From contig NC_057749.1 in the NCBI RefSeq assembly GCF_004010195.1, positions 13,452,543 to 13,516,542 of the forward strand: DNA of 64,000 nt. Direction: 5' to 3'. This stretch comes from Chiloscyllium plagiosum (Eukaryota). The notes under the pieces were generated by a model that did not search any database, was not told the DNA's origin, and was given only the letters and a program-made list of their open reading frames with translations. Positions within the stretch are counted from its first letter, which is position 1. Each line of letters begins with the position of its first letter. Below, in pieces: positions 28,612-33,625 of this stretch. The translations under genes and the position numbers were made by a program.

Positions 28612-31600
28612 TGAAATATCTGCACAGAGGCCGGTATCCTGTCACCAAGTCATCTCTTATTTACATGTGCACAGTACACTGGCGGTGGACTGCCAGCTCA
28701 GAGTCAGTCCCAGAGTTCAGGAAACTGTTTTTTTTTTCTTCTATTTTTTCTTTTCTTTTTTTTTCTTTTCTGTTTTTTTCTTTTATTTAAAAACAAGAGC
28801 AGAGTCCTTCGCTCACATTGATCCAGTTCCCTCAAAGGCAGAATCTCCTGGTTTTTTTCAAGGAACAAAACACTTCAAAATAAACCCTTCCTCCTCAATG
28901 GGAAGACACCAACAGAATCAGTCTCCTCTCCTCTCCTCTCCGCACTGATCCAGCTCCCTCAGAGGCAGAGGCAGCTCTCAGACACACCTGTTCATGTTTT
29001 TTCCCTCTGTCGTCACTGAAGTAACTCCACAGAGGCCAGTATTCCATCACCAAGTCATCCTTAACCTCCTGTCTATTTTTTTTATATATATATGCCTGCT
29101 TTATTTTTTTTTCCCCCACAGTACCGCCTAATTGCGGTAGTGCTTATTTTTCCCCAGCACCCATGGTGTGTGTGTGTGTGTAGGTGTGAAACTTCCTGTC
29201 TATTTTTTTTATTTTTATCTTTTTTTTCTTTTTATCTTTTTTTTCGTTTTTCTTTTTTTTCTCTCCATGGTGTGTGTGTGCAGGTGTGAGACACAGTGAA
29301 AGACACAAACCTCCTGTCAATTTTGTTTTTCTTTTTTTTTATCCCGAGCACCCATGGTGTGTGTGCAGGTGTGAAACACAGTGAAAGACACAAAGTGCAC
29401 GAATTTGTTATTCAATTTCCATCACCAGGAAGATAGGAAAACACCCGGGTGGCCAGGGACAAACACTGCCCTTCTCATCAATGGGCAGTGCTGTGTGATC
29501 AAAACAGTGAAGGGGAGGGGAGGGACTAAATCAAAATAGAGTTGGAGGGAGAAATAATGCACTCCACTACCTCCTGTCTATTTTTTTTCTTTTTTTTTAT
29601 TTTGGAACACTTCTGTATTTTTTTTCTTTTTCTTTTCTCTTTTTTTTTCTTTCTTTTCCCCCACACTACCACCTAAGTGCGGTTGTGCTTATTATATTTT
29701 TTTTCCCCAGCACCCATGGTGTGTGTGTGTGCGCAGGTCTGAGACACAGTGAAGGACACAAAGTGCACCAATCTTTATTCAATTTCCACCACTTGGAAGA
29801 TCGGAAAACACCCGAGTGGCCAGTGACAAACACTGCCCTTCACATCAAAGGGCAGTGCTGTGTGATCAAAAACAGTGAAGGGGAGGGTAGGGACTAAATC
29901 AAAATAGAGTTGGAGGGAGAAATAATGCACTCCACTACCTCCTGTCTATTTTTTTTTGTTCTGTTTTTTTTTCTTTTTTGCTTATTTTTTTCCCCAGCAC
30001 CCATGGTGTGTGTGTGTGTGCAGGTGTGAGACACAGTGAAAGACACAAAGTGCACCAATCTTTATTCAATTTCCACCACCAGGAAGATAGGAAAACACCC
30101 GGGTGGCCAGTGACAAACACTGCCCTTCACATCAAAGGGCAATGCAGTGCTGTGTGTTCAAAACAGTGAAGGGGAGGGTAGGGACTAAATCAAAATAGAG
30201 TTGGAGGGAGAAATAATGCACTCCACTACCTCCTGTCTATTTTTTTTTACCAGGAAGATAGGAAAACACCCGGGTGGCCAGTGACAAACATTGCCCTTCA
30301 CATCAAAGGGCAGTTTTCCCCCGTTTATTTATTTTTTTTCTCTTTTTTTTTAAATAATTTAACCCCCACACTACCACCTAAGTGCAGTAGTGCTTATTTT
30401 ATCCCCAGCACCCATGGTGTGTGTGTGCAGGTGGGAGACACAGTGAAAGACACAAAGTGCACAAATCTTTATTCAATTTCCACCACCAGGAAGATAGGAA
30501 AACACCCGGGTGGCCAGTGACAAACACTGCCCTTCACATCAAGGGGCAGTGCTGTGTGTTCAAAACAGTGAAGGGGAGGGTAGGGACTAAATCAAAATAG
30601 AGTTGGAGGGAGAAATAATGCACTCCACTGCCTCCTGTCTATTTATTTTTTAAGAGGGGCAGGCAGTCGTCCCTAAATAACTCCTGGTTATTTTTTTTTT
30701 CTCTTTTTAATAATTTAACCCCCACACTACCACCTAAGTGCGGTAGTGCTTATTTTATCCCCAGCACCCATGGTGTGTGTGTGTACAGGTGTGAGACACA
30801 GTGAAAGACACAAAGTGCACCAATCTTTATTCAATTTCCACCACCAGGAAGATAGGAAAACACCCGGGTGGCCAGTGACAAACCCTGCCCTTCACATCAA
30901 GGGGCAGTGCTGTGTGTTCAAAACAGTGAAGGGGAGGGTAGGGACTAAATCAAAATAGTGTTGGAGGGAGAAATAATGCACTCCACTACCTCCTGTCTAT
31001 TTTTTTTTCTTTTTCTTTTTTCTTTTCTTTTTATTGAAGAGACACCATTTTATTTTATTTTTTTTCTCTTCTTTTTCCCCCACACTACCACCTAAGTGCG
31101 GTAGTGCTTATTTTATCCCCAGAACCCATGGTGTGTGTGTGTGCGCAGGTGTGAGACACACTGAAAGACAAAGTGCACGAATCTTTATTCAATTTCCACC
31201 ACCAGGAAGATAGGAAAACACCCGGGTGGCCAGTGACAAGCACTGCCCTTCACATCAAGGGGCAGTGCTGTGTGTTCAAAACAGTGAAGGGGAGGGTAGG
31301 GACTAAATCAAAATAGAGTTGGAGGGAGAAATAATGCACTCCACTACCTCCTGTCTATTTTCTCTTTTTTTTCTCTTTTTCTTTTTTTTTCTTTTTGAAG
31401 ACACAAAGTGCACGAATCTTTATTCAATTTCCACCACCAGGAAGATAGGAAAACACCCGGGTGGCCAGTGACAAGCACTGCCCTTCACATCAAAGGGCAG
31501 TGACTCTTCCCTTTTTTTAATTTTTTTTTCTCTTTTTTTTTCTCTCTTTTTTTTTTAACCCCCACACTACCACCTAAGTGCGGTAGTGCTTATTTTATCC

Positions 31601-32071
31601 CCAGCACCCATGGTGTGTGTGTATACGTGTGAAACACAGTGAAGGACACAAAGTGCACGAATTTTTTATTCAATTTCTACCACCAGGAAGATAGGAAAAC
31701 ACCCGAGTGGCCAGTGACAAACACTGCCCTTCACATCAAAGGGCAGTGACTCTTCCCTTTTTTTAATTTTTTTTTCTCTTTTTTTTTCTCTCTTTTTTTT
31801 TTAACCCCCACACTACCACCTAAGACACTCCTGTTTATATTTTTTTTCTACGGGCAATTTAGCATGGCCAATTTACCTGACCTGCACATCTTTGGACTGT
31901 GGGAGGAAACCGGAGCACCCGGAGGAAACCCAATAGAGTTGGAGGGAGAAATAATGCACTCCACTACCTCCTGTCTATTTCTGTCAGTCAGTGTTTCCTG
32001 ATTGGCCCAGGTTAACAACCCCAATCAATGATCTCATAGTCAATGAGATCCATCTGGTTCTAATCACTACA
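28612..32071 (-). mobile_element. Solo LTR of the same family, split at its TATA region by a ~3.2 kb insertion stack
   Basis: LTR 5' half at 31967-32071 (tgtagtgattag...ctgacagaaatagacaggagg on -). LTR 3' half at 28612-28727 (...gacttggtgacaggataccggcctctgtgcagatatttca on -). Both align by eye to 33403-33625. Confidence 0.8.
29076..31966 (-). repeat. Tandem stack of poly(A)-tailed 3' ends of a non-LTR retrotransposon (probably Tx1 group)
   Basis: About six ~240-290 bp units plus partials. On -: VECIISPSNSILI* ORF end, 3' UTR with hairpins (cactgccc...gggcagtg; cactacc...ggtagtg), AATAAA and an A-rich tail. Units are separated by tagacaggagg. The Tx1 assignment rests on recall of similar ORF2 C-termini (also a DCLPL fragment at 30652-30672). 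Confidence 0.75.
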
Positions 32072-33402
32072 TGTATCCTTTCCCATGGCTCTGCAAATGC
32101 TTTTCCCTTCAAGTATTTATTTAATTGCCTTTGGAAAGCCAAAATTGAACTGCTCTGCACCATACTCTCAGGCAGGCTAATTCAGATCCCAACTATTGGC
32201 AGCATAAAAACAGTTTTTCTTTATGTTGTCTTTAGTTAAATCCATATTCTCTAGTTCTTGACCACTTTTGTCAATGGAAACAGTTTCTGTTACATTTCAA
32301 GTGTTACACAGTAAGAGATGTTGACTCTGCAGACAACAAGTTTATGCTAGGCTGTTTCCTGACCAAAATGCCTAATCACATCATCAAGACATCATACGAT
32401 CAGACTCCTAAAGTGATAGTTCATTATAGTTATCAAATTTACAGCAATTTCTCCTTCTTACTGTGTCCAGATGTCTTGTAGTTTCGAACACCTTGATCAC
32501 ATTGCCTCTCAACCTTCTTTAGGGACAAGAGTGTGATGCTGGAAAAGCACAGCAGGTCAGGCAGCATCTGAGGAGCAGAAAAATCAACATTTTGGGCAAA
32601 AGCCCTTCATCATCCTTCAGGGAATCAATCCACTCCTCCAATCTACCTACACAACTTTATTGTTCCCATTGTGCTTTTGCTGACTTTAATGATGTGCCTT
32701 CAAAGCTCAGCGCTGTCGAGCTATCTGATAATGGCATTACTATGTCTGTAGGGAATGAGGTAGCCAGGATTTGTATAAAGATTTAAGGTGGAATGCCTCA
32801 GGACCAAGTCAACCCTCCTGTAGGGGAGTCAGTGCTTTGATAACCGAACCAGAAAGGTTCATGTTGTGTCTGGATTACATTAACAATAAATCCACATATC
32901 TGGTTCACTAATGGAACTGCGGTGACTGGACCCATTATCACAAAACTACGATTCTTCACATTGAACCTCAAATGGTCCTACAGATCAGCTGCAGTTTACC
33001 CTCCTGACTAGAGAATCTGCACATTTCAAATGATTCATTTCCAGCACTGTTGCTGGATAAAATTGCAAGTGCCAAACCCTTACAGTGACCAAACTGAGCC
33101 TAGGCTCTTTGCACTTAAATACATGATCCATGTCCCAATAATGTGAGAGTCTGCCCTCAGTACTGGGCAAACAGAAATCATACAAGGATAAGTTTGTCAA
33201 TAATTTGGTAAGGAAATTCCTAAAAATAATGGTGCAATGTGGGAGCCACAGCAGCCAATTTTCACACAGCAAGCTTTCACAAAACAGAAATGTGAACTTG
33301 ATTTGATCATCTGCTTCAATAACATGGCTTGAAGAACAAGTATTGGCCAGGTGACCCACAGATAATCCCTGAAACAGCACTGCAGGATTTTACCTTGGTG
33401 GC

Positions 33403-33625
33403 TGTTATAATTGAAATGAAGGCCAGGTATATCTCATTGGGTGTGAGATTCCTGATTGGAGCTGTTAACCTGAGTCAACCAGGGAACCTTGGCTGACAGA
33501 TATAAATAGGAGTCTCAGCAATTGGCACTACTCTAGGGACTGGCTCTGAATTAACTGGTCAGTCTATGTACTGTAAATGAAGGGTGACTTGGTGATAGGA
33601 TACTGGCCTCTGTGGAGTTATTTCA
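33403..33625 (+). mobile_element. Short solo LTR (~220 bp, probably Gypsy-type)
   Basis: TG...CA ends, TATA-like gacagatataaataggag at ~33495-33512, 3' end gggtgacttggtgataggatactggcctctgtggagttatttca. Flanks gtggc/gtgga. Confidence 0.7.

Follow-up and report, generated by a model that had tools for sequence, protein, structure and literature searches.

A probable stack of retro-insertions by a target-specific Tx1-group LINE at the TATA region of a long terminal repeat in Chiloscyllium plagiosum

A 64,000-nucleotide stretch of Chiloscyllium plagiosum DNA (contig NC_057749.1, positions 13,452,543 to 13,516,542 of the forward strand; hereafter the window) contains a ~220-bp long terminal repeat (LTR) that is interrupted by an array of A-tailed modules. 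The LTR lies on the minus strand from 32074 to 28612 and is split at 28727/31968 by an insert of ~3.24 kb, within which about 15 modules follow one another head to tail, all in the same orientation. This array is very likely a stack of retro-insertions made by a young, abundant and target-specific long interspersed nuclear element (LINE) of the Tx1 group, L1-like and with a predicted endonuclease of the apurinic/apyrimidinic (APE) type. The initial annotation of the stretch had described an LTR split at its TATA region by ~3.2 kb of same-orientation, A-tailed modules, and its description agrees with BLAST comparisons, which placed both LTR halves and an intact copy at 33403-33625.

When five real LTR copies were compared with the window by BLAST, the minus strand matched LTR positions ~1-113 at 32074-31968 and, on the far side of the insert, ~126-234 at 28722-28612. 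Each module consists of a 12-13-nt motif (mostly ATAGACAGGAGG on the minus strand), a body and an A-rich tail, the motif standing before nearly every module and the tails differing from one module to the next. Read on the plus strand, the 11-mer CCTCCTGTCTA occurs eight times in the array (29065, 29570, 29938, 30229, 30631, 30989, 31347 and 31967) and, on either strand, nowhere else in the 64-kb window. A relaxed motif, TCCTGTC[TA]A, gave two more sites (29194 and 29312), and four weaker variants were read in the sequence near 28846, 28986, 30681 and 31824, in agreement with the recurrence between modules that had been claimed for this motif. The dominant array motif is the variant carried by the split LTR itself. 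Seven modules start at LINE reference position 2243 (window 31969, 31349, 30991, 30633, 30231, 29940 and 29572), six others at 2126, 2324 (twice), 2325, 2420 and 2436, and one further start was positioned by eye near 2494. The modules had been said to end at varied 5' points; several distinct starts do exist, but the seven that share reference 2243 make up half of the larger modules. The count of about 15 is that of the assembly, the read evidence consisting of short-read contigs, none of which spans the array.

The same arrangement recurs elsewhere in the genome. Two samples of other loci were compiled, 27 through a query with the 3' unit and 29 through a query with the C-terminus of open reading frame 2 (ORF2). 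At 34 of these 56 loci, the LINE lies between or adjoining LTR halves broken at LTR position ~100-115, always on the same strand; the LTR half ends at position 101-122 at 28 loci and starts at 93-112 at 16, with both halves present at 10. About a dozen bases are present in both halves, and this overlap is the target duplication. With at most one mismatch, AACAGGAG was found within 100 nt after the LINE 3' end in 51 of 91 cases, compared with 312 of 5000 random windows and 7 of 111 A-runs (~6%). Many of the 40 LINE 3' ends without AACAGGAG are followed by LTR variants with two mismatches, and the read contigs of run X4 contain more LTR-motif-LINE junctions, from other loci. Stretches of N occur in or beside LINE or LTR copies at L054, L062, L063, L064, L066, L068, L072, L075, L076, L078, L081, L082 and L087; at several loci the N run follows the LINE 3' end immediately or takes the place of upstream coding sequence, which limited what the tables could include.

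At one locus (L015), a single 351-bp insertion carries the locus-specific sequence TAAGCAGGTATGT at both flanks, and matching locus-specific duplications flank the inserts at L018, L028, L029 and L016 in the same way. The duplication measures about 12-15 bp and extends from TATAAA to just before CAG, its right edge always lying before CAG(A/G)G. It follows from the locus-specific duplications and the fixed break in the LTR that the motif is derived from the target and regenerated, and is not element sequence. Both sequence-specific insertion at the LTR TATA region and re-creation of the site by target duplication, as put forward in the initial annotation, are borne out by these loci, which exclude random flanks as well as a motif belonging to the element itself.

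The LINE was identified through the 281-nt unit at 30719-30999, which had 1461 first-look candidates when the 3.56-Gb genome of the window was queried; most copies run on upstream into coding sequence. Walking upstream from the unit led to the end of ORF2 and to a reverse transcriptase (RT); the ORF2 stop lies inside the unit and the 3' untranslated region measures ~235 nt. With the query covered in full (100%), the RT (279 aa, L075:2-838) shares 63% identity with YTX2_XENLA, the 'Transposon TX1 149 kDa protein' of Xenopus (E 3.5e-101), and it matches Pfam RVT_1 (E 1.8e-22). Among solved structures the best match is human L1 ORF2p (1.5e-17), with R2 at about 1e-5, and the relatives of the RT include many sea-turtle proteins (60-67% identity) that carry RVT_1 and Exo_endo_phos (PF03372). 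Tx1 ORF2 can be aligned with genome copies over residues 3 to ~1300 (48-56% identity), and several stop-free open frames of 1286-1436 aa coincide in place with the RT-query matches. This alignment reaches into the span of Tx1L-EN, which comprises residues 1-239 (PMC1950540), and the corresponding domain of the LINE is a predicted one. For a C-terminal Cys/His zinc knuckle in ORF2, a zf-RVT match is weak (E 1.2e-4, 23.1 bits, below the cut-off of 27.5), and a C-x2-C...H...C pattern was seen in translation P0002. Judged by best-hit identity, the LINE appears to belong to the Tx1 group named in the initial annotation, L1-like and with a predicted APE-type endonuclease. Preference for particular target sequences is common in this clade, though not universal.

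Since RT-region copies are 97-99% identical to the query copy, the LINE family is young; in the 3' unit, copies are 95.6-98.6% identical to each other. The identity of the RT copies, taken with the stop-free frames of ORF2 length, makes the family look recently active. A GC-rich stretch at L083:2693-3596 (LINE-oriented) with an open frame of ~270 aa has 491 first-look candidates at 85-90% identity, and one copy, on C2, precedes the ORF2 match by ~270 nt; the stretch may be the ORF1 region of the element. The sequence at its start resembles the target motif read in reverse complement. It is not claimed as the LINE 5' end, as distances of 5.9 kb and 9.2 kb at other loci do not fit.

The target belongs to an abundant LTR family (3934 first-look candidates), which is old because other copies are only 75-81% identical to the intact copy of the window. 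In an alignment of thirty copies the two ends are TG and CA, and five or six of the copies run on into a common internal region, which at L041 matches RT_RNaseH_2 (E 1.1e-25) and contains an Integrase_H2C2-like stretch (E 1.9e-5; 25.1 bits, just under the cut-off of 25.5). An internal region encoding RNase H- and integrase-like domains identifies the repeat as a true LTR of a Ty3/gypsy-type element, which is separate from the LINE and older than it. Real LTR copies, such as L038, read GATATAAACAGGAGTCTCAG at the site, with a CCAAT-like box ~35 nt upstream and AATAAA ~75 nt downstream. By its position in this layout, the targeted TATAAA is the presumed TATA box. The suggestion that the LINE parasitises the promoter of the LTR holds in a positional sense only. 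In the window, two copies of this old family lie 1.3 kb apart in opposite orientation, and one of them is occupied; the site reads ATAAATAGGAGTCT in the empty copy and ATAGACAGGAGG in the occupied one.

The modules of the window differ considerably in age. Their median identities to 26 unlinked copies are 97.1, 96.8, 96.3, 94.5, 93.7, 93.4, 93.1, 91.5 and 87.7%, and adjacent modules resemble each other no more than they resemble unlinked copies. From this spread of identities and the unlikeness of neighbours it follows that most modules are separate insertions of different ages. Since divergence is not monotonic along the array, the array is not a clean chronological record, and the chronological array of the initial annotation did not survive the analysis: the ages do not run in order, one composite has been duplicated locally, and some motifs are foreign and were probably brought in by read-through transcripts. 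The piece at 28791-28917 is unique and has single-copy depth in four of four runs, in all of which short-read contigs also continue from both array flanks into the LTR halves. The flanks and this piece were recovered at that same depth from organism A and from a second organism, B, with two studies for each, and at least part of the array therefore predates the split between the two.

These results bear on whether the array could have arisen in another way. An artefact of assembly, in which repeats were collapsed or expanded to give the array or its length, would be in keeping with the lack of any read record spanning it and with a 9-nt insertion after 28978, in module 15, which contigs of two runs (X1 and X4) carry relative to the window and which represents a small haplotype or assembly difference. 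Such an origin is nevertheless scarcely credible when the flanks enter the LTR halves and 28791-28917 has single-copy depth in every run, and when the same architecture is found at dozens of other loci on many contigs. Amplification of one LINE insertion by unequal crossing-over or replication slippage, much as in a minisatellite and with the motif as part of the amplified unit, would account for the periods that Tandem Repeats Finder reported in the window (358, 2.9 copies, 90% matches; 287, 1.9 copies, 94%), for the one 5' junction common to seven modules and for a duplicated 174-nt composite with an identical 59-nt complex tail. It is very unlikely to have built the array, however, in which the tails, the 3' ends and several 5' ends vary among units, neighbours are no more alike than unlinked genomic copies, and non-LINE modules and foreign motif variants lie within the stack; moreover, the 34 occupied LTR loci described above show the same architecture, each with its own motif variant.

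It could also be supposed that one or a few integration events sufficed, the RT having aborted and re-initiated, or having jumped between RNA templates and target DNA, so that a concatemer was formed in a single round. In favour of this are the many modules that are tiny internal fragments, the 'empty' motif-tail units, the 69 of 160 modules that are 3'-truncated and still tailed, the fusion of LINE with SINE-like (short interspersed nuclear element-like) sequence in module 1, and the 5' ends that recur within arrays (seven times in the window and five times each in L016 and L025). This course of events is improbable in our judgement, as identities to unlinked copies spanning up to ~9 percentage points (97.1% vs 87.7%) are hard to reconcile with one event, no template path could be conceived that would give a fresh motif at every junction, and clean single insertions with a duplication do exist, L015 being an example.

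Several observations nonetheless weigh against successive, target-specific insertion as the explanation of the array. Both samples of loci consist of the best matches to the queries and are not random, and modules within a locus are not independent. The flanking motif copies are unlike each other in L023, L021, L062 and L086, so that a clean duplication is not seen in all arrays, and about five LINE 3' ends lie in non-LTR contexts (L030, L074, L077, L080 and L089). The 3' junction of the window array lacks the expected motif copy, the tail being joined directly to CAG, which makes it the one exception among 11 array 3' edges inspected. The shared 5' ends are a further difficulty: of 160 modules tabulated genome-wide, 21 have their start within reference 2240-2250, and starts also cluster at 2143, 2203 and 2158, which simple random 5' truncation does not explain. 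Likewise, the 3'-truncated modules (43% of the 160) break off at internal positions, and in a second count, of 71 3'-truncated modules, 45 had an A-run ≤8 nt after them; such tailed, 3'-truncated modules are not predicted by plain target-primed copying of a full polyadenylated RNA. Finally, the 174-nt composite is a local duplication (31398-31570 vs 31644-31816, 167/174 identical).

Some of these irregularities can be described more closely. Short-period satellite-like repeats take the place of the LTR motif after the LINE 3' end at L077 and L089, and these contexts may be secondary targets or off-target events. Within L016 and within L025, five modules have a 5' end in common. Microhomology was considered for the 5' ends at 2243-2247 and set aside as not general, the window junction sharing AGG with the LINE and the L016 junction having no overlap. 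The tails of 3'-truncated modules agree with ordinary ones both in length (median 31 nt) and in composition (about 75% A, 8.5% G and 2% C), and it is possible that such modules are re-tailed RNA fragments, or that abortive tail-only insertions deleted the 3' end of a neighbour. The tails in the window and in L004-L089 depart from pure poly(A), with about 75% A, 8.5% G, 11-15% T and 2% C, and (ATAA)n runs often stand directly before the motif, as if the motif start had been copied reiteratively.

The duplicated composite comprises a LINE 3' end, the 59-nt tail, an odd motif (GGGAAGAGTCA) and a module start. The odd motif and its junction are also present in the unlinked locus L019, which suggests read-through RNAs that carried neighbours along. 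Modules that are tiny internal fragments, and motif-tail units without a body, were both seen. At L023:2310-2795 (LINE-oriented), an unrelated non-LINE insert of ~490 nt, which has internal repeats and ends in AATAAA and a short tail, is bounded on one side by a motif copy and on the other by a motif followed by the LTR 3' half; the insert resembles an RNA, cellular or from another element, that was copied in trans into the target used by the LINE.

How successive, target-specific insertions would produce such an array can be outlined as follows. The endonuclease, whose specificity would be the cause of the fixed site, is envisaged to nick the bottom strand inside TATAAA of the old Ty3/gypsy-type LTR, the tail always being followed by the motif. 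The top strand would be nicked ~12-15 bp further on, just before CAG(A/G)G, giving the predicted site TATAAACAGGAGTCT/CAG. Target-primed reverse transcription would then set a copy, in fixed orientation, between two copies of the interval (A)TAAACAGGAGNNT, so that each insertion would leave the order motif-insert-tail-motif. As the duplicated interval keeps the recognition sequence, two usable sites would remain after every event, and later insertions into regenerated sites would yield repeats of motif, 5'-truncated LINE and A-rich tail. The same machinery would also copy other A-tailed RNAs, namely the SINE chimera, LTR-derived RNAs and mRNA-like RNA, and probably read-through transcripts that include a neighbouring tail, motif and module, by which foreign motif variants would be spread; occasional local duplication would add units. 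A self-reinforcing process, in which the first insertion supplied a better primer, was ruled out on geometry, the primer being the motif complement at pristine and re-used sites alike.

A further and doubtful suggestion is that the choice of site is a transcription strategy rather than only a safe haven, and that the stack is a fossil record of the RNA metabolism of the element. If this were true, landing ~10 nt downstream of the LTR TATA box would provide each copy with a ready-made RNA polymerase II promoter, and the LTR poly(A) signal ~80 nt beyond the site would give read-through RNAs with a 3' motif that could guide re-insertion. The doubly truncated, A/G-tailed modules would then be copies made from decay fragments of such RNAs after re-tailing by a non-canonical poly(A) polymerase.

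The features of the array are listed in Table 1. The tails of modules 2 and 3 are identical, and the two modules together form the composite that recurs in module 4. In the bin 31862-31998, which overlaps module 1, summed contig depth reaches 5-9 million in all four runs; by that measure the SINE-like repeat of ~81 nt at 31851-31931 ranks with the commonest repeats that these genomes contain. Upstream of the LINE in L030 there is a similar repeat, inverted. The ORF2 piece of mini-module 7 is 96% identical across its 25 nt, and the tail region of module 13 was reported by Tandem Repeats Finder (29203-29262). Module 15 begins its non-LINE content with the last 46 nt of an LTR (positions 178-223 at 29062-29017 by BLAST) and a primer-binding-site-like stretch, after which come two pieces resembling the LTR 3' part, both with a foreign motif in front of them (near 28986 and 28846); the second stops at AATAAA. 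The pieces of module 15 are interpreted as LTR-derived or read-through RNAs that the LINE machinery copied.

Table 1. Features of the occupied LTR, its modules and the intact LTR copy in the window. M, target motif; reference, LINE reference positions; window positions of LINE pieces in brackets.
Feature	Position	Strand	Content	Median identity to 26 genomic copies (%)
Split LTR, 5' part	31968..32074	-	U3-like: CCAAT-like box, then TATA region; LTR positions 2-113 (BLAST, 5 copies)	
First copy of M	31967-31977	-	ATAGACAGGAGG; terminates split LTR 5' part	
Module 1, chimera	31839..31969	-	38 nt of LINE, reference 2243-2280 (31969-31932); SINE-like ~81 nt (31931-31851); short A tail	
Module 2	31760..31838	-	Foreign motif TATAAACAGGAGTGT (31824-31838); last ~21 nt of LINE (31803-31823); 43-nt complex A/G tail	
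Module 3	31514..31759	-	Motif variant GGGAAGAGTCA; LINE reference 2324-2514 (31748-31559); tail	
Module 4	31359..31513	-	GGGAAGAGTCA; LINE reference 2324-2428 (31502-31398); 3'-truncated, yet followed by A/G tail	
Module 5	31001..31358	-	M (31347-31358); LINE reference 2243-2514 (31349-31077); long tail holding ~12-nt mini-fragment	94.5
Module 6	30692..31000	-	M (30989-31000); LINE reference 2243-2514 (30991-30719); tail; served as genome query	96.3
Mini-module 7	30643..30691	-	Foreign motif ATAACCAGGAG; 25-nt internal ORF2 piece, reference 2126-2150 (30676-30652); short A tail	
Module 8	30330..30642	-	M variant with final C; LINE reference 2243-2514 (30633-30363); tail	96.8
Module 9	30241..30329	-	Degenerate motif; internal LINE piece, reference 2325-2389 (30314-30249); A9 directly after	
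Module 10	29950..30240	-	M; LINE reference 2243-2486 (30231-29979), 28 nt short at 3' end; tail	93.7
Module 11	29582..29949	-	M; LINE reference 2243-2514 (29940-29658); 76-nt tail	91.5
Module 12	29321..29581	-	M; LINE reference 2243-2483 (29572-29334), 3'-truncated; short tail	93.1
Module 13	29204..29320	-	Motif variant TTGACAGGAGG; LINE reference 2420-2465 (29308-29265); 61-nt tail	
Module 14	29077..29203	-	Motif variant ATAGACAGGAAG; LINE reference 2436-2514 (29192-29113); tail	87.7
Module 15	28728..29076	-	M (29065-29076); non-LINE content; 62-nt tail last	
Split LTR, 3' part	28612..28727	-	CAG first, directly after last tail; contains AATAAA; ends CA; LTR ~126-234 at 28722-28612 (BLAST)	
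Intact unoccupied LTR, same family	33403..33625	+	TATA region GATATAAATAGGAGTCTCAG	

With these results, the hosts of a target-specific Tx1 LINE now include a cartilaginous-fish genome, and the target is defined to a few bases as a 12-15-bp interval at the LTR TATA region. This offers a natural setting in which to study how a long site is recognised by an APE-type endonuclease, the problem that motivates Tx1L-EN engineering (PMC1950540). The stacks hold hundreds of abortive products and may show how target-primed reverse transcription fails. For annotation, such arrays should not be labelled as satellites or as new SINE families.

The Tx1 habit of targeting transposons and of sandwiching a target site duplication (TSD) between tandem copies is already known from frogs and crocodilians (PMC4494074). 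Kojima (2015) described Tx1 families that target Mariner, Harbinger and microsatellites, as well as the crocodilian families Tx1-8_Crp and Tx1-4_AMi, which target LTR retrotransposons, and ascribed 'tandem SINEU-3 insertions ... sandwiching a TSD' to sequential insertion (PMC4494074). For cartilaginous fishes, no LTR target at a TATA region was described in the literature searched in full text; a whale-shark genome paper mentions Tx1 L1-like repeats for whale shark and Callorhinchus in passing (PMC8455134). The initial annotation knew of no description of such an array in sharks, and none was found by full-text search, but LTR-targeting Tx1 families and tandem insertions around a TSD had been described in crocodilians (PMC4494074).

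The closest named relative of the LINE is Tx1L of Xenopus laevis, to judge from the RT identity and the alignment along ORF2 given above. Tx1L, described as 'stringent', targets its insertions through a specific endonuclease and integrates at one site in Tx1D (PMC1950540), and specific integration into another transposon is thus common to both elements (PMC1950540, PMC4494074). They differ in that the target of Tx1L is the piggyBac-type DNA transposon Tx1D, whereas here it is the TATA region of a Ty3/gypsy-type LTR in another vertebrate lineage, and in that the specificity of the endonuclease was shown biochemically for Tx1L and is deduced from insertion sites here. The crocodilian Tx1-8_Crp and Tx1-4_AMi share the use of LTR retrotransposons as targets, although the text of the paper names no site within the LTR element (PMC4494074). 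The tandems of SINEU-3 and Tx1-Mar in Mariner-N4_AMi follow the same logic of regeneration, but they comprise two copies (PMC4494074), whereas about 15 modules are present in the window and several at many other loci; many modules here are also truncated at both ends, and other RNAs have been co-inserted. With R1 and R2 in the 28S rDNA and other target-specific LINEs, the element shares a fixed site and orientation and many dead, 5'-truncated copies, and co-transcription with the target has been discussed as part of the strategy of target-specific LINEs (PMC4494074). R2 differs in using a restriction-like endonuclease, and the RT found here is far closer to L1 than to R2. Moreover, R1 and R2 are directed at a conserved host gene, whereas the target here is a dispersed and decaying transposon family.

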